The notes under the pieces are model-generated. The model was given only the letters and a program-made list of their open reading frames with translations, made no database searches and had not been told where the DNA came from. From positions 1 through 44,902 of the forward strand of contig CANQLH010000016.1 in NCBI GenBank assembly GCA_947624655.1: 44,902 bases of DNA, in the 5' to 3' direction. Made by a program: the position numbers and the translations under genes. The DNA comes from an uncultured Clostridia bacterium (GTDB lineage: Bacteria; Bacillota; Clostridia; TANB77; CAG-508). Position 1 is the first letter of the stretch. Every line of letters starts with the position of its first letter. Shown piece after piece: positions 15,242 through 21,700 of the stretch.

Positions 15242-16774
15242 ATGGAAATTCTTATAAGTATGTTACCCTTCGTCCCCATTGTCGTGGTGGTAGTTGCTCT
15301 AATTATCCTGATTGCATCAGGATATGTAAAGGCCCCGCCTGACCAAGCATACATCATTTCCGGCTGGCACAAGAAGCCTCGTATCCTTGTAGGTAAAGCT
15401 GGTGTCAAGATTCCTTTCTTGGAACGTCTTGATAAGCTATCTCTTGGTGCCATTCAGATTGATGTAAAGACGCGTACCGCGGTTCCTACTGCGGAGTATA
15501 TCAATGTTAAAGTTGATTCTACTGTGTCCGTTAAGGTCAGCCAAGACCCAGAGGGTATTGTATTAGCGTCTCAAAACTTCTTAAACATCCCTCGTGACCA
15601 AATTGCCGCTAAGATTAATGACCTTCTTGAAGGTAACATCCGTGAGATTGTTGGCCAAATGAGACTAACCGAAATGGTTGGCGACCGTAAAGCATTCTCT
15701 GAAAAGGTTCAAGAAAATGCAGTACCCGATTTGAAGCGTTATGGCCTTGAACTCATTACCTTCAATGTTCAGAATTTCTCTGATGACAATGGCGTTATCA
15801 CCAACCTCGGTATTGATAACGTTGAGCAAATTCGTAAGGGCGCAGCCATCGCTAAGTCTAATGCCCAGCGTGAGATTGCAGTCGCAGAAGCAGCTAATGA
15901 TAAAGCAGCTAACGATGCTCGCGTACAGGCAGAAGAAGAGATTGCTAAGCGCAACAACGACCTCGCCATCCGCAAGGCTGCTTTAAAGCAGGAAGCTGAT
16001 ACCAAGCAAGCTCAGGCTAATGCCGCTATGGCGATTGAGGCTGAGAACCAGCGCAAGTTGCGTGACGTAGCCGCGGCCGATGCTGATATTGCTCGTCAGG
16101 AGAAGGAGATTGAACTCAAGGAGAGAGAAGTCTCTGTTAAGGAGCGTTCTCTTGAGGCTGAGGTTAAAAAGACCGCTGAGGCTAAGAAGTATGCCGTTCA
16201 GCAGCAAGCTGATGCAGAACTTTATGCCACTCAGAAGGCTTCTGAAGCCGAGCTGTTCGAGCGCCAGAGAAAGGCCGACGCTGAACTCTTTGAGCGCCAG
16301 AAGAACGGTGAAGCCGCCCAGTACGAGGCAGAGCGTAGAGCTGAAGCCGAGAAAGCTACTGCTGAGGCCGTCCGTGTAAAGGGCGAGGCTGAAGCGGCTG
16401 CTATTCGCGCCCGTGGTACCGCTGAGGCCGACGCTATCGCCGCCAAAGCGGCTGCTGAGGCCGAAGGTCTTATGAAGAAGGCCGAGGCTATGAAGCAGTA
16501 TGGTGAAGCCGCTCAGATGGACATGAAGTTACAGGCCATCAAGATTTACTTTGAGCAGTTGCCCGCAATCGCTGAAGCCGCTGGCAAAGCGTACACCAAC
16601 GTTGACAAGATTGTCATGTTTGGTGGAGAGAGTAGTAAACTCACCGAGGATGTTGTCAAAAACATCACTCAGCTTTCCGAGGGACTCAGTAACTCCCTTG
16701 GTGTTGACCTGAAGGATATTCTCAATTCCTTCATCGGTACAAAGATAGCTTTACCTGATAACCAGAAAGAGTAA
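15242..16774 (+). CDS. Flotillin-like SPFH/band-7 protein (N-terminal TM helix, SPFH domain, long EA-rich coiled coil)
   Basis: TM 'FVPIVVVVVALIILIASG'. The SPFH core 'AYIISGWHKKPRILVGKAGVKIPFLERLDKLSL' matches flotillin/YqiK starts. ~250 aa follow, with tandem repeats 'AELFERQRKADAELFERQKNGEA'. Confidence 0.65.
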   Translation: MEILISMLPFVPIVVVVVALIILIASGYVKAPPDQAYIISGWHKKPRILVGKAGVKIPFLERLDKLSLGAIQIDVKTRTAVPTAEYINVKVDSTVSVKVSQDPEGIVLASQNFLNIPRDQIAAKINDLLEGNIREIVGQMRLTEMVGDRKAFSEKVQENAVPDLKRYGLELITFNVQNFSDDNGVITNLGIDNVEQIRKGAAIAKSNAQREIAVAEAANDKAANDARVQAEEEIAKRNNDLAIRKAALKQEADTKQAQANAAMAIEAENQRKLRDVAAADADIARQEKEIELKEREVSVKERSLEAEVKKTAEAKKYAVQQQADAELYATQKASEAELFERQRKADAELFERQKNGEAAQYEAERRAEAEKATAEAVRVKGEAEAAAIRARGTAEADAIAAKAAAEAEGLMKKAEAMKQYGEAAQMDMKLQAIKIYFEQLPAIAEAAGKAYTNVDKIVMFGGESSKLTEDVVKNITQLSEGLSNSLGVDLKDILNSFIGTKIALPDNQKE

Positions 16775-16786
16775 AGGAGAATATAA

Positions 16787-17788
16787 ATGATTATTTGGCT
16801 GATTGTCCTCGCAATTATTGGGATTATTTCCTTTATTGTTTTGCACGTAATGGCAAAACGTAAAGTAACGGCTGAAAATGCTCGTTATTTAGACAAAAAT
16901 GTAGGTAGCTTTCAGTTTCCTATATGTAGATTGCTACGTTGGCTAATTCCTGGACTTATCGCCTGTATCATGGTTTTATCATTACTAATTGGTGGTATCC
17001 ATATTCTGGATACCACCGAGCGCGGCGTAGTTAAAACCTTTGGACGTATTTCTGATACAGTTCTTGAAGGCGGCTTACGCCTTGTCAATCCTATTTCAGA
17101 TACCGTCACAATTTATGATATGACGGCTAAAACCCATGAACTTGTCTTTGAATCATATACAGGTGATGCACAGGCTATTACAGTAACTGCGGATATCGAA
17201 TATCGACTCGACCCAGGCCGTATCCTTGAGGTTGCTAAAACATATGGCTCAGTTGATGTTCTTGATTCTCAATTTATGAAGGTATGTGAAGAGAGCATTA
17301 AATCTGTAATTTCTACATATAGTGCAATGCCGCTTCTTGAGGACCGAGCTAACATCTCACCAAAAGCACAAACAGCGAGTGCATCTCTTGAGGACGTATA
17401 TCCTGTTATTATTAACAAAGTTGTAATCCGTGATATTGTCTTCTCTGATGCTTTTGAGGCTTCAGTTGAAGCTAAAATGACTGCGGAGCAGGATGCCTTG
17501 CGAGCAGAAGAGGAAGCTCGTAAAGCGATTATTGAAGCCGAGCGTGACCGCGATGTAGCAAAAGTACAGGCCGAAGAGGCCAAGACTAAAGCTCAAGGCG
17601 AAGCAGATGCTAAAGTTATCGCCGCACAAGGTGAGGCTGACGCTCTTGAAATGACACGAGAAGCTCTGGAGAAAATGCCTGACACATGGATTATGCAGCT
17701 CTTTATCGAGCGTTGGGATGGCAAATTGCCAACTTATATGCTTGGTGAAGATACTGGAGTAATGATTTCTCCAGGCGCCGTACAGTAA
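16787..17788 (+). CDS. SPFH/band-7 protein, HflC/HflK/prohibitin-like (two TM regions)
   Basis: 'ERGVVKTFGRISDTVLEGGLRLVNPI' matches the HflKC/stomatin core (eRgVv.rfGr...pGlh...P). C-terminal EA-rich helix. Confidence 0.6.
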   Translation: MIIWLIVLAIIGIISFIVLHVMAKRKVTAENARYLDKNVGSFQFPICRLLRWLIPGLIACIMVLSLLIGGIHILDTTERGVVKTFGRISDTVLEGGLRLVNPISDTVTIYDMTAKTHELVFESYTGDAQAITVTADIEYRLDPGRILEVAKTYGSVDVLDSQFMKVCEESIKSVISTYSAMPLLEDRANISPKAQTASASLEDVYPVIINKVVIRDIVFSDAFEASVEAKMTAEQDALRAEEEARKAIIEAERDRDVAKVQAEEAKTKAQGEADAKVIAAQGEADALEMTREALEKMPDTWIMQLFIERWDGKLPTYMLGEDTGVMISPGAVQ

Positions 17789-17801
17789 AATATTTATTTC
17801 G

Positions 17802-17838
17802 CCCCTAGCTCTTTGAGCTAGGGGTTTTCTTTTTTTCG
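17802..17838 (+). terminator. Rho-independent terminator
   Basis: 9-bp stem cccctagct/agctagggg with loop ctttg, followed by ttttctttttttcg. Confidence 0.85.
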
Positions 17839-17929
17839 CTAGCCTCGATGCGCTTCGTTCTTCCGACCGCTCGCCCTATACAAAATTTTTAAGGTAAATA
17901 GTTAAAATTGGATTTTTCTCTAAAATTAT

Positions 17930-17950
17930 TGTATAATATCGGTAGATTTA
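17930..17950 (+). promoter_or_regulatory. Promoter (ttgTATAATatcggtag), copy 5
   Basis: TATAAT at 17932-17937 preceded by TG. RBS aaggag before ATG 17975. Confidence 0.5.
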
Positions 17951-17974
17951 AAAAACAATAAGGAGTTTAATACT

Positions 17975-18436
17975 ATGATAAAGACCATTTATGAACTTGA
18001 CCCAATATCTTATAATGTAGATGAAGAAACTGGGGAATGTTCTGTAATTCTCAAATATCAAAACAAAGAATATACTGGTATTGCTCATGCGCGGCCAGAA
18101 GATATGATATTATTTTCCGAAAAGGTAGGGCTCAATATCGCGCTAAGAAGAGCGAGAATTGCTATCTTCAAAGATAAATATTTAGAAGCACAGCAAATAG
18201 CTACCATCAAGAATCAAATGTATCAAGAGACAATAGACTTTGGGCATAGAGACACCGCGGAAGTGGACCCTACTGGCGCGTTCTTATCTAAAGTGGTAAA
18301 TGCGCAAAAACGCGCTTTGGCGCTAAAACAAGCTCTGATTATTGAGCGCGAATCTCTAAATACCTATTTGCAAGGATTAAGACAAGTATTTACGACCATT
18401 AAAGCTAAACGTGCGCAGGAGGACAAAAAAGAATAA
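17975..18436 (+). CDS. hypothetical protein (153 aa)
   Basis: ORF with promoter and RBS; no motif recognised. Confidence 0.5.
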   Translation: MIKTIYELDPISYNVDEETGECSVILKYQNKEYTGIAHARPEDMILFSEKVGLNIALRRARIAIFKDKYLEAQQIATIKNQMYQETIDFGHRDTAEVDPTGAFLSKVVNAQKRALALKQALIIERESLNTYLQGLRQVFTTIKAKRAQEDKKE

Positions 18437-18463
18437 ATTACCATCCCCTAAAATTATAAATAA

Positions 18464-18718
18464 ATGAGGAAGGTGATTATATTGTCTGATTTTACCAAAG
18501 GATTTATTTGTGCGACGGTTGGCATAACTATTGCCGCTTCTGTAAGTGATATAATTTCTACTGCAACCGAACTACTTAAAGCCTTTTTGGGTAGTAAGAT
18601 AGTGAAATATAATCAAGATATAGATAGCGCTATATCGCCACCGCCGCAAGAAACTCGTGCTATCGGTTTCAATACTACATTTGAACAAGAAGAGGATGAA
18701 GAATATGCTGATGACTAA
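18464..18718 (+). CDS. hypothetical small protein with one hydrophobic helix; start uncertain (possible TTG at 18482)
   Basis: ORF; 'FICATVGITIAASV' is TM-like; acidic C-terminus. Confidence 0.35.
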   Translation: MRKVIILSDFTKGFICATVGITIAASVSDIISTATELLKAFLGSKIVKYNQDIDSAISPPPQETRAIGFNTTFEQEEDEEYADD

Positions 18719-19982
18719 TCCAGATGTTAGATTTTATGATACTTGCTCTCTATTGATTGGCGGAGAGTCAATTTTTACAAAGGGAGAGCAATTCTTAATT
18801 TCTTCTATCACTTTACAAGAATTAGAGAGAATTAAAACGTCGTCTAATAAGGATAGCGAAACTAAATTCTCTGCTCGCCTCATACTTCATTTGTTGGAAT
18901 ATTATAAAGATATGTATAAAGTTGTTATACATAGAAATGATAACACTAATGCTATTGATATAGTTCCTTATACGGATGATTTACGTATCTTAAATGATGC
19001 TATATTATGCAATAATGGGACATATTATAATGGTATGTATACTGATCGAATCGTCTTCGTTACGAATGATTTAGCTCTTACTAATATTGCCAATCTCTAT
19101 TTCGGAGATGGTATGATAGAAAAAATTGATGAAGATGAAGTCGATGATTATACTGGGTTTAAAATAATTGAAGCAAGTGATAAAGAACTTGCCGATTTCT
19201 ATAGTGATACCACAGTTGATTGGTTTGAATTAATGATTGGCGAATATCTAATTCTTAAAGATAAGGAAGGTAAGGTCGTCGATGTTAGATGCTGGACAGG
19301 TAGCGACCATAGATATATCACTGTCAAGCCCTTCGATTCTACGTGGTTTGGGAAAATAACTCCTTTCCATGATGATATTTACCAAAAACTATTGTTCGAT
19401 AGTTTAATTAATAATAAAATTACTATGGTTAAAGGCCCTGCGGGCTCCGGTAAGACGCAAATTAGTTTAACCTTTTTGATGCATCAACTTGAGAAGGGGC
19501 GTATTGATAAGATAATTATTTTCTGCAACACAGTGGCAACCGCAAACTCTGCAAAGTTAGGTTTTTATCCAGGAACAAAAGATGAAAAGCTGTTAGACTC
19601 ATAGATTGGAAACTTGTTAGTAAGTAAATTCGGAAGTAAAGACTATGTAGACCGCATGATAAACGAAGGTAAACTTTTACTTCTACCCATGTCTGATATT
19701 CGTGGATATGATACAACTGGTATGAAAGCAGGAGTTTATATCTCTGAGGCTCAAAATCTCGACCGCACTTTAATTAAACTCGCTTTGCAACGTATTGGTG
19801 AAGATAGTATCTGTATTATAGATGGAGATTCAAAGACACAAGTAGACGATATTCACTTCTCAGGTAATAGTAATGGTATGAGACGAGTATCTAAGGTATA
19901 TCGTGGGCATGATATTTATGGAGAAGTCGAATTAAAGACTATATATCGTTCTAAAATAGCTGAAATAGCAGAAGAAATATAA
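18705..19982 (+). CDS. PIN-domain + PhoH-like ATPase (YlaK-type) containing one in-frame TAG at 19602-19604
   Basis: N-terminal PIN-like 'RFYDTCSLLIGGESIF...ITLQELERIK'. PhoH Walker A 'KGPAGSGKTQISL'. The two track ORFs (18657-19604 and 19614-19982) share a frame and are separated only by TAG. The PhoH core continues across it ('VYISEAQNLDRT...IIDGDSKTQVD'). Confidence 0.75.
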
Positions 19983-20032: not shown

Positions 20033-21397
20033 ATGACCAATGAAGAATTTATATGGAGATTTCTTGCGGATGCAGGGTATAATAACTTCGGTATTGCTGG
20101 AGTTATGGGCAATCTTTATGCTGAGAGTTGTCTAAATCCGCAAAATCTTCAAAATTCCACAGAAAAGCGTCTCGGCATGAATGATGCCCAATATACTGCT
20201 GCTGTTGATAGTGGTACATATACTAACTTCGTACATGATAGTGGCGGTTACGGCTTGGCTCAATGGACTTATTGGAGTCGGAAAGAGGGTTTACTTAATT
20301 ACGCTAAATCAAAAGGTAAATCTATCGGTGATTTACAAATGTAGCTTGAATACTTCGTCAATGAGCTTGCTCGATATAAAGGTTCTAATGAGAATGTTAA
20401 AAATGCGAAATCTATTCAGCAGGCATCTGACTTTATTGTATTAAATTATGAACGTCCAGCGAGTGTAGGAGCATCCGCATCTGCGGAAACACGTGCTAAT
20501 ACTCTAAATAAACGAGCCGGTTATGGACAGCAGTACTATAATAAATATGCTACTACTGTAGTTGCTCCATCATCTACACCCGCTCCAACGGTTGTTACCA
20601 CAAAAAATCCTATTGATAGAGTAATTGCAATAGCCAAAGCAGAAGAAGGATATTTAGAGAAGAAAACAAATTCTCAATTAGACGATAAAACTGCCAATGC
20701 TGGTTCTAATAACTGGACAAAATATGCTCGTGACCTTGATGCACTTGGTAATTTTTATAATGGTAAAAAGAATGGATACGCTTGGTGTGATGTTTTCGTA
20801 GACTGGTGCTTTGTATAGGCATTTGGTCCAGATAAGGCACGTGAATTACTCTGCCAACCGATCGGGTCAGCCGGCGCAGGATGTACTTACTCTGCACGTT
20901 ACTATAAAGCAAAAGGTCAGTTGTATAAGACTCCGCAACCTGGTGACCAAATTTTCTTTGGAGATTCAAGCGGCAACTGCTCTCATACGGGTTTAGTAGT
21001 CGCGGTTGATAGCTCTAAGGTCTACACTGTTGAAGGAAACACATCGAGCGCCGCAGGCGTAGTAGCTAATGGTGGCTGCGTAAGAGCTAAAAGTTATGCT
21101 CTTAACTATAAAAATATATATGGCTATGGCCGTCCTAACTGGACGCTAGCACCACAAATAGAGGAGGAAGATGATGATATGATTACTCAAGAACAATTCA
21201 ATCAGATGATGGATAACTATCTAAAGGAACTCTCTAAACAACAAGCATATGCCTGGGAGCTTCCAGGATTAAACTGGGCTCAGACCAATGGTATCATGGT
21301 TGGTGACGACACTGGCAATTTGATGCCTCATAAATTCTTAACCCGTGGAGAAGCAGCGGCTGTCGTAATGAGACTGGCTGAAAAGTTAAATAAGTAA
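20033..21397 (+). CDS. Endolysin: lysozyme-like (phage tail lysozyme-type) N-domain + CHAP domain + C-terminal SLH-like cell-wall-binding motif; two in-frame TAGs (20342, 20816)
   Basis: 'GIAGVMGNLYAESCLNP...YGLAQWTYWSRKE' (lysozyme-like family pattern). CHAP 'WCDVFVDWCF...GDQIFFGDSSGNCSHTGLVVAV...VEGNTS' (Cys/His dyad). SLH-like 'WAQTNGIMVGDDTGNLMPHKFLTRGEAAAVVMRL'. Single frame with two TAGs and no TAA/TGA until 21395. Confidence 0.7.
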
Positions 21398-21591
21398 TGT
21401 ATAAAAGCTATATAAAGAAGAAAAGAGAGTTCTCTAAAATATTGTTAATTCAAGAATCAATTCTTATATGGATTACTACTCTTGCTTTATTAGGTTTGGC
21501 TTTCGTATGTATTATAAATGGCTATCTTGGTTCATTACCATGGTTAGCTGGCATGATAGGATTCCCTTGGAGTGCGTACGGAATTAGTTAG
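21397..21591 (+). CDS. holin-like small membrane protein
   Basis: 64 aa with a charged N-terminus and two hydrophobic segments. Immediately downstream of the endolysin (taATG overlap). Confidence 0.5.
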   Translation: MYKSYIKKKREFSKILLIQESILIWITTLALLGLAFVCIINGYLGSLPWLAGMIGFPWSAYGIS

Positions 21592-21700
21592 GCGTTTTAC
21601 TATAACAAGAGTAAAGCGGAGAACATATAGGGTGGTATTGTATATCAACAATACTAGAATACAACTGGGACAGTAGATGAATAGTATCATCTATAATACT

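Follow-up and report, generated by a model that had tools for sequence, protein, structure and literature searches.

The window analysed here is contig CANQLH010000016.1 of assembly GCA_947624655.1, a stretch of 44,902 nucleotides deposited under an uncultured Clostridia bacterium. Positions 15,242 to 17,788 hold two consecutive genes for SPFH proteins, which we call open reading frame (ORF) A and ORF B. The first encodes a flotillin-type protein and the second a prohibitin/HflK-like protein. They belong to the part of an uncultured phage that encodes replication, repair and lysis, and all genes of the window are on one strand. A first-pass annotation, made from the DNA letters, had assigned the two genes to a phage and had read their products as a pair. 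The phage origin is borne out by an endolysin, a full replication module and a gene order shared with IMG/VR viral contigs of 130-197 kb. The pairing is not.

Both proteins belong to known families, and Band 7/SPFH annotations in phages are long known: SPFH proteins are annotated in hundreds of phage genomes. What, then, is new about this locus? By comparing it with its relatives we show that it is a conserved accessory site, here called the slot, which holds a flotillin, a B-type gene or nothing, and at which the types swap cleanly. We have not seen described before a conserved slot with alternating SPFH classes, their predicted opposite orientations or their stacking in a single lineage. In the searchable literature we found no report of a B-type gene alternating with or standing beside a flotillin, and no tested function for phage SPFH proteins.

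A flotillin and a prohibitin-like protein

ORF A is of flotillin type, as the first-pass annotation had proposed. It scores above the gathering cut-offs of two Pfam models, Band_7 (E-value 5e-11, 43.4 bits against a cut-off of 23.6, residues 30-209) and Flot (1.4e-6, 28.8 bits against 27). Among proteins of solved structure, phmmer matches it to human flotillin-1 with an E-value of 5e-49, and nearly the entire protein is aligned: residues 32-326 of ORF A with 6-301 of flotillin-1, and 361-494 with 292-420. Between these stretches ORF A has about 35 extra coiled-coil residues, inside which lies the tandem AELFERQ repeat seen at first reading (motifs at residues 336 and 347). The Ala/Glu-rich coiled coil noted then is present too, although at about 200-230 residues it is somewhat shorter than the roughly 250 first given. 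Residues 196-420 are 28% Ala and 16% Glu, and the AlphaFold2 (AF2) model draws residues 191-388 as a single helix. The top Foldseek matches of this low-confidence model are flotillin-1/2 (7.5e-12), with a TM-score of 0.73 for the Band 7 domain of flotillin-2.

FloT (YuaG) of Bacillus subtilis has 509 residues, which places ORF A in the same length class. Like FloT and flotillin-1/2, ORF A runs from anchor to SPFH domain, Ala/Glu-rich coiled coil and C-terminal flotillin region; unlike them, it is phage-encoded and sits within an accessory cassette. It is a flotillin but, by NCBI's rule, no FloT orthologue, because its score of 233.4 bits lies under the cut-off of 700 for the NCBIfam FloT model NF058507. 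No flotillin PHROG family matches it; its sole PHROG match is a weak one to phrog_200. The SPFH domain is predicted to be cytoplasmic, as is usual for flotillins: a hydropathy and charge scan finds no Lys or Arg ahead of the anchor and four within the 25 residues after it.

Was ORF A recently captured from a host? Sequence identity gives this idea no support. The best true bacterial flotillins, chromosomal genes of Acetobacterium, Eubacteriaceae and Streptococcus, are merely 46-50% identical, and matches at 57-69% identity fall on contigs of about 148 kb that are binned into metagenome-assembled genomes (MAGs) and resemble phages of the same family. The G+C content at third codon positions (GC3) is 0.49 in ORF A versus about 0.28-0.30 in the downstream core genes. 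This is no mark of recent insertion, because the raised GC3 extends over the whole operon upstream of ORF A and the same offset appears in relatives L004, L008 and L011, whose base composition is very different. The offset could reflect expression level or gene origin.

ORF B matches Pfam Band_7 (4.5e-23) and, over nearly its whole length, the profile of phrog_200 (1.8e-42; residues 6-324 on profile positions 47-352 of 379). By sequence its nearest relative is prohibitin-2 (5e-13), followed by stomatin, QmcA and HflK (1e-6 for HflK). Its AF2 model, built from 54 homologues with a predicted local distance difference test (pLDDT) score of 79, contains the transmembrane (TM) helices and the SPFH domain, followed by a helix of 75 residues and a short one at the C-terminus. 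Foldseek matches this model to prohibitin, HflC, HflK, stomatin, erlin and QmcA with E-values of 1e-15 to 1e-12, and the first three are the best (1e-15 to 1e-14). The first-pass label, HflK/C-type, therefore stands as regards a prohibitin/HflK-like sequence and structure, but not as regards family membership. Against TIGR01933, TIGR01932 and NF008181, ORF B stays under the cut-offs (hflK, 49.9 versus 159.4 bits; hflC, 33 versus 134.4; PRK10930, 33.9 versus 660), and because it does so its likeness to HflK/C is resemblance only.

Two N-terminal TM segments are found in 118 of 120 ORF B homologues, separated by a loop with a mean of 26 residues. The family mean of Lys plus Arg is 0 before TM1, 6.5 in the loop and 1.6 past TM2. 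By the positive-inside rule the loop is predicted to be cytoplasmic and the SPFH domain to lie outside, facing away from the cytoplasm as in HflK/C and the prohibitins. Like Escherichia coli HflK/HflC and PHB1/PHB2, ORF B combines an SPFH domain with a coiled-coil helix and with a cap-like segment at the C-terminus. It differs from them in being a single gene, in having two N-terminal TM segments with a Lys/Arg-rich loop where they have one, and in carrying a family-specific C-terminal motif, MPDTW..W.G.LP, which is invariant among its homologues.

Profile matches place both proteins in the SPFH fold, with structural support that is strong for ORF B (model and Foldseek) and comes for ORF A mainly from the alignment to flotillin-1. 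Both are also predicted to be membrane-anchored, as first annotated, ORF A through one N-terminal hydrophobic segment and ORF B through two.

How do these proteins compare with those of catalogued phages? B-like genes occur in 176 phage records by tblastn. The members of phrog_200 come from Vi01-like phages, jumbo phages like Rak2, GAP32 and CBB, Rhizobium phages and Schitoviridae, and those from cultured phages are just 25-31% identical to ORF B. phrog_200 carries the label "lipoprotein", whereas ORF B uses a two-TM anchor; we rejected a lipoprotein signal in ORF B, whose sole lipobox-like sequence, LIAC, lies inside TM2 and is unconserved. ORF B is further set apart from phrog_200 by alternating with, or adjoining, a flotillin. 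Flotillin-type genes are nearly absent from catalogued phages: tblastn finds them in eight records, mostly unannotated faecal contigs, and PHROGs has no family of them.

Operon structure

ORF A and ORF B are consecutive genes, as the first-pass annotation had stated, and apparently co-transcribed. A gap of 27 nt separates ORF A from the upstream phosphoesterase gene and only 12 nt separate ORF A from ORF B. Since the sequence holds no terminator at the A-B junction, the two can be read as cistrons of one transcript. As its last two cistrons they end a pre-late operon that also contains a gene for a polynucleotide kinase (PNK)-like protein and the phosphoesterase gene, and the operon is closed by the strongest intrinsic terminator in the 12-20 kb region of the window. 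We rejected a fusion of A and B through stop read-through: the stop codon is TAA and not the recoded TAG (see below), and ORF B has a strong ribosome-binding site, an ATG and a TM start of its own.

The kinase-phosphoesterase order to the left of the SPFH genes is kept in relatives. To the right, a promoter-like TGTATAAT element precedes a gene for a 153-aa protein. This gene is still present in relatives with an empty slot (L072-L084) and is thus independent of the SPFH genes.

Bacterial SPFH genes can form operons with NfeD genes (YuaF-FloT, QmcA-YbbJ). Here the Pfam-scanned neighbours include no NfeD match; an 84-aa ORF at the right border was scanned against PHROGs only, with no match. No NfeD partner stands beside the closest bacterial flotillins either, and there is no FtsH partner among the neighbouring genes scanned.

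A conserved slot with exchangeable contents

Relatives were anchored by PIN-PhoH alignment, and their SPFH genes were scored by tblastn and family hidden Markov models (HMMs). The 153-aa protein, tried as a lone anchor in viral contigs, gave no matches. Across the family the order of genes is kept: PNK-like kinase, then phosphoesterase, slot, 153-aa gene and finally PIN-PhoH. We tallied the 59 IMG/VR loci that have enough upstream sequence, scoring each at the slot. A flotillin-type gene alone fills it in 40 of the 59, making this the majority state in this uncultured phage family. Five loci have a B-type gene only, and in 14 the slot is empty, the phosphoesterase gene being followed directly by the 153-aa gene. 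None of the 59 holds both.

How cleanly are the contents exchanged? When L004, which has a flotillin, is compared with L008, which has a B-type gene, homology runs to the phosphoesterase stop codon and resumes about 35 nt past the SPFH stop. L015 and L016 have flanks with 90-97% nucleotide identity, L021 and L019 flanks that are 93-94.5% identical, and at the slot of both pairs the SPFH cassette stands out as the only large block without homology. The replacement is precise in all three locus pairs, with flanks 80-97% identical overall. The exchange of A for B is both precise and recent.

Each cassette type brings its own terminator. The hairpin CCCCTAGCTC...GAGCTAGGGG lies 3' of the B gene both in the window (17801-17835) and in L008 (10975-11005) in nearly identical form. 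The two B-type proteins in front of it are 48% identical, less conserved than the hairpin behind them. Because the same hairpin follows the L008 gene, the terminator can be said to travel with the B cassette. The flotillin cassette of L004 ends in a different hairpin. ORF A of the window lacks its own terminator and leads directly into ORF B, and for this reason the tandem looks as if a flotillin ORF had been inserted upstream of a B cassette already resident there.

Differences between near-identical genomes in whether a gene is present, and of which type, are typical of phage-host or phage-phage conflict genes and not of core genes. One such conflict is superinfection exclusion, or competition between phages more broadly, in which an altered membrane would block DNA injection by later phages. 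The variable slot content fits, and the products are predicted to be located in the membrane and to be expressed before the late genes. In addition, an SPFH gene of Salmonella phage PhiSH19 adjoins an annotated superinfection-exclusion gene (PMC3220722), but this adjacency is a single anecdote. ORF A and ORF B show no homology to known Sie or Imm proteins, and those exclusion proteins that are known tend to be small and not cage-formers with 333-510 residues. We consider exclusion improbable.

Are ORF A and ORF B a pair?

HflK/HflC, PHB1/PHB2 and Flot1/Flot2 are pairs, and the first-pass annotation held that ORF A and ORF B form one as well. An obligate two-component complex would fit several facts: the genes are adjacent and co-transcribed across a 12-nt spacer, the tandem recurs, and the three systems just named are among many SPFH systems that are hetero-oligomeric. 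Yet ORF A and ORF B are not paralogues, their sequence similarity being close to zero. BLASTP aligns them with an E-value of only 0.002, within the Ala/Glu-rich helices, and the family HMM of neither matches the family of the other. A paralogous gene duo like HflK/HflC is absent: there is a single B-type gene, its neighbour is a flotillin, and relatives carry B alone. The two proteins are also predicted to lie on opposite sides of the membrane.

The comparative evidence points the same way. Beyond the slot tally, a B-type gene within 6 kb is absent from all 46 genome loci that carry a homologue of the flotillin. The closest relatives of ORF B, at 75-78% identity, stand alone after the phosphoesterase gene; those of ORF A stand alone too, at about 80% identity once the near-identical P0001 is set aside. 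The clean replacement of A by B between near-identical phages is a further argument against a pair. The A-B tandem is nevertheless real. It is found in seven contigs from several samples, which rules out an assembly chimera, and it is specific to the window's lineage. These observations imply that ORF A and ORF B are independent accessory cassettes able to substitute for one another, not subunits of one complex, and we regard an obligate A-B complex as highly improbable.

Genomic neighbourhood

The features of the window are collected in Table 1. Upstream of the slot lies a block of NAD+ metabolism genes that spans 9153-13212 and is conserved in relatives. Reconstitution of NAD+ by NARP1 is a proven counter to NAD+-depleting defences (bioRxiv 10.1101/2024.02.11.579819; PMC13586617), and the adjacent PRPS-like and NAMPT-like genes match, by predicted enzyme type, the two enzymes of NARP1 (Adps and Namat). 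Dispersed around this block is an RNA-repair-like set consisting of an RNA ligase, the PNK-like AAA_33 kinase and three calcineurin-like phosphoesterases, to which relatives L001-L009 and L149-L152 add Thg1-like and RtcB genes. The predicted functions suggest that the set may counter defences that cleave tRNA. A B-type gene of a second phage lineage again lies among RtcB, NAMPT, NadE, RNA ligase and Thg1 genes; this recurrence is an association only.

Table 1. Features of the window, with the SPFH genes and their parts first. Positions are nucleotides of the window unless residues are given.
Feature	Position	Strand	Evidence or remark
ORF A, flotillin/FloT-type SPFH protein, 510 aa	15242-16774	+	Boundaries exactly as in the first-pass annotation
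ORF A, N-terminal hydrophobic anchor	residues 7-25		Mean hydropathy 3.14
ORF A, SPFH domain	residues ~30-190
ORF A, long Ala/Glu-rich helix with tandem AELFERQ repeat	residues ~191-390
ORF A, C-terminal flotillin region	residues ~393-494
ORF A ribosome-binding region, AAGGAG 7 nt ahead of ATG	15225-15241	+	Read from sequence
A-B junction, 12 nt	16775-16786	+	ORF A TAA at 16772-16774, AAGGAG, ORF B ATG
ORF B, prohibitin/HflK-like SPFH protein of phrog_200, 333 aa	16787-17788	+
ORF B, order of parts	residues: TM1 1-19; Lys/Arg-rich loop; TM2 53-71; SPFH ~71-220; helix 221-295; C-terminal motif
Intrinsic terminator closing the operon, 11-bp stem, 7 G-C pairs, T run	17801-17835	+	Terminator scan
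PNK-like AAA_33 protein	14095-14619	+	Pfam, phrog_505
Phosphoesterase, left border of slot with the kinase	14744-15214	+	Pfam, phrog_547
153-aa protein, right border of slot	17975-18436	+	No family match
84-aa ORF, one hydrophobic segment, overlaps PhoH start	18464-18718		Also called in sister contigs L139, L140
PIN-PhoH, right border	~18705-19982	+	In-frame TAG at 19602 read as Gln
Endolysin, Phage_lysozyme2 + CHAP + SLH, 454 aa with TAG = Gln	20033-21397		TAGs at 20342-20344, 20816-20818
Possible holin, 99 aa, two hydrophobic segments	21397-21696		Four TAGs
Isochorismatase/nicotinamidase-like	9153-9845
PRPS-like	9846-10712		phrog_619
NAMPT-like	10709-12460		phrog_448
NAD synthase	12454-13212
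RNA-repair-like gene set, dispersed	4553-5374, 7876-9150, 13215-13931, 14095-15214
MVP homologue, 809 aa	582-3011		MVP_shoulder 1.2e-16, Vault_3 1e-9
DUF7788 protein, left contig end	108-524		2.3e-20
Radical SAM enzyme	6370-7269		4.9e-7; in one accessory region with the DUF7788 protein

Downstream of the slot follow genes for PIN-PhoH, endolysin, RNase H, GyrB, GyrA, DNA ligase, an AAA_24 protein and DnaB, together with those for an SF1 helicase, a RecJ-like protein and Pol III alpha. The placement of the SPFH genes, between repair and replication genes and about 2.2 kb upstream of the endolysin and the two-TM holin-like ORF, would suit a membrane platform for the phage's own replication, its assembly or, through organisation of the holin, its lysis timing. 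Flotillins do provide membrane protein complexes with platforms (PMC11775717; PMC8581546). Conservation would be expected of a core platform, however; here, 14 of 59 slots are empty, and A and B replace each other although they are predicted to face opposite ways; moreover, a terminator, the promoter-like element and PIN-PhoH stand between the cassette and the lysis genes. We give this explanation little credence.

Phage, host and genetic code

Metagenomic relatives of the phage are abundant, as contigs of 130-197 kb in IMG/VR and in gut and rumen assemblies, and some are binned into Oscillospiraceae, Eubacterium or Clostridia MAGs. Megablast of positions 14000-19000 against 50,697 phage records gave no match, so the phage has no close cultured relative among them. 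The nearest PIN-PhoH proteins (34-42% identity) belong to large Firmicutes phages: Alicyclobacillus KKP_3916, Geobacillus E3 and Bacillus vB_BanS phages. In Geobacillus virus E3 a 566-aa "major head-like protein" is encoded upstream of PIN-PhoH; we rejected it as a flotillin, as it is absent from the flotillin tblastn matches. The endolysins of the window and its relatives have SLH domains, and the strong AAGGAG ribosome-binding sites fit a Firmicutes host. The phage probably infects a Clostridia species that binds proteins with SLH domains, through an S-layer or a secondary cell-wall polymer.

The phage family reads TAG as glutamine (genetic code 15). In the window, long ORF segments are joined by six in-frame TAGs, among them those at about 34773, 36108 and 40393, and the standard code splits PhoH, the endolysin, DnaB, a primase-like gene and the SF1 helicase. 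When 20033-21397 is translated with TAG as Gln, an intact endolysin results. The TAG in the window's PhoH gene (19602-19604) aligns with Gln in relatives, and a TAG of the relatives falls at a Gln of the window. The window contains no tRNA and hence no suppressor tRNA. The Agate-type gut phages of Borges et al. are similar in reading TAG as Gln, in coming from gut and rumen samples and in size (154 +/- 27 kb versus 130-197 kb for the relatives here), a likeness by code, size and sample source alone.

In-frame TAG codons are absent from ORF A and ORF B, each of which ends in TAA. Their reading frames are therefore independent of the code, and both could be translated under the standard code before any switch. 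This bears on whether ORF B, or both proteins, might be virion-associated, delivered with the DNA and acting at entry. In recoding phages the in-frame recoded stops reportedly occur mainly in structural and lysis genes, according to Borges et al., and their absence from ORF A and ORF B tells against a virion location. So does the position of the two genes in an early repair and replication region, far from any structural module, and a capsid is unlikely to carry integral membrane proteins that have two TM segments. What speaks for a virion protein comes from distant homologues. In Pectobacterium phage CBB the Band_7 protein gp029 bears the annotation "structural protein", a weak pointer given that these homologues are only about 27% identical to ORF B. 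Three peptides of an SPFH lipoprotein were found in a preparation of a Vi01-like phage (PMC10892097), a number consistent with membrane contamination, and a role in adsorption or DNA entry has been speculated upon in a 2026 paper (PMC13239085). The chance that either protein travels in the virion seems to us very slight.

A possible role at the host membrane

What could the slot proteins do for the phage? Membrane-attached SPFH cages are established (PMC11260169, PMC13000311, PMC12624060; PDB 7vhp, 7wi3, 8rrh), and the solved complexes on which we draw by analogy are the flotillin 44-mer dome, the HflK/C 24-mer cage and the prohibitin, stomatin and erlin rings. Each of the two proteins would work alone, probably self-assembling as a homo-oligomeric ring or dome around a patch of the host's cytoplasmic membrane, which it would fence off. 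ORF A would act from the cytoplasmic face and ORF B from the outer face, with its N-terminus outside and its loop inside. Because these opposite-facing types replace each other, their shared target may be the membrane itself or a membrane-spanning client.

We propose, tentatively and as a possibility short of an even chance, that these proteins guard the host membrane, keeping it intact and energised until programmed lysis. Such cages could resist membrane-disrupting abortive-infection effectors or the premature firing of a holin. Where both cassettes are stacked, as in the window's lineage, both membrane faces would be covered. In B. subtilis an SPFH protein brings PspA to the membrane (PMC8581546). 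The island that holds the cassette has genes of counter-defence type, those for NARP1-like NAD+ rebuilding and RNA repair, and this neighbourhood mildly supports a first-pass suggestion, protection from abortive-infection pore formers.

Several points weigh against a guard role. The function is read from homology, predicted topology and gene neighbourhood. The topologies of ORF A and ORF B come from a hydropathy scan and the positive-inside rule, and the AF2 model of ORF A is poor (pLDDT 61, from a shallow alignment) and lends weak support only. No PADLOC-DB defence-protein model matches either protein. Neighbourhood arguments in large phage genomes are loose, and the same region holds ordinary replication genes. 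The 14 empty slots among 59 relatives mean that the slot function is dispensable. Finally, TAG is rare throughout the early region, which makes its absence from ORF A and ORF B weak evidence on timing.

The main rival to a guard role, and one compatible with it, is capture of FtsH. ORF A from the cytoplasmic side and ORF B from the outer side would corral the host protease, stabilising phage proteins or reshaping the turnover of membrane proteins, along the lines of the lambda CII/HflKC axis that the first-pass annotation named. Prohibitins are partners of m-AAA proteases, and the flotillins of B. subtilis are associated with FtsH; FtsH, or the m-AAA group related to it, is the one client documented for both subfamilies. 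A membrane-spanning client would also explain how scaffolds facing inside and outside can be swapped. HflK/C cages enclose FtsH (PDB 7vhp, 7wi3, 9cz2), and prohibitin and HflC/HflK are the best structural matches of ORF B. On the other hand, ORF B falls far under the HflK and HflC cut-offs and is a single gene with no K/C duo. In the window we saw no gene for FtsH, for lysogeny or of CII/CIII type, and the phage looks to be lytic, the scanned ORFs including no integrase. Capture of FtsH as the principal function is thus rather unlikely, although corralling of FtsH may form part of a guard role.

A broader form of the guard proposal, which we rate as unlikely, would make the SPFH cassettes a new type of counter-defence: self-assembling cages that shield the host membrane, on either face, against membrane-disrupting abortive-infection effectors or premature collapse, and the third arm of an island whose genes undo the three chief forms of suicide damage. 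NAD+ depletion would be answered by the NARP1-like genes, cleavage of tRNA and other RNA by the ligase, kinase and phosphatase (with Thg1 and RtcB in relatives), and membrane permeabilisation by the flotillin or the B-type protein. The A/B/empty polymorphism would then track the effectors deployed by local hosts. If cages do protect or commandeer the membrane, a structural, non-enzymatic class would be added to phage counter-defence; if the guard role is not true, ORF A and ORF B remain ordinary accessory scaffold genes. Either way the slot is a natural experiment, in which near-identical and very abundant gut phages carry a flotillin, a prohibitin-like protein, both or neither. Comparing these variants for host range, membrane potential, lysis timing and sensitivity to membrane-targeting effectors could reveal the role of an SPFH cage.

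Other genes of the window and its relatives

The major vault protein (MVP) homologue that the first-pass annotation had recognised is present, with matches to both MVP_shoulder and Vault_3. No PHROG family convincingly matches it. Its relatives, at 57-65% identity, lie on seven IMG/VR viral contigs of 13-240 kb, four of which measure 168-240 kb.

Homing endonucleases interrupt the region in some relatives. A GIY-YIG gene splits gyrB in L001 (15661-18595), an I-HmuI-like gene lies between the kinase and phosphoesterase genes in L002 (1735-2439), and in L009 (11653-14597) the PhoH and lysozyme calls are fragmented.

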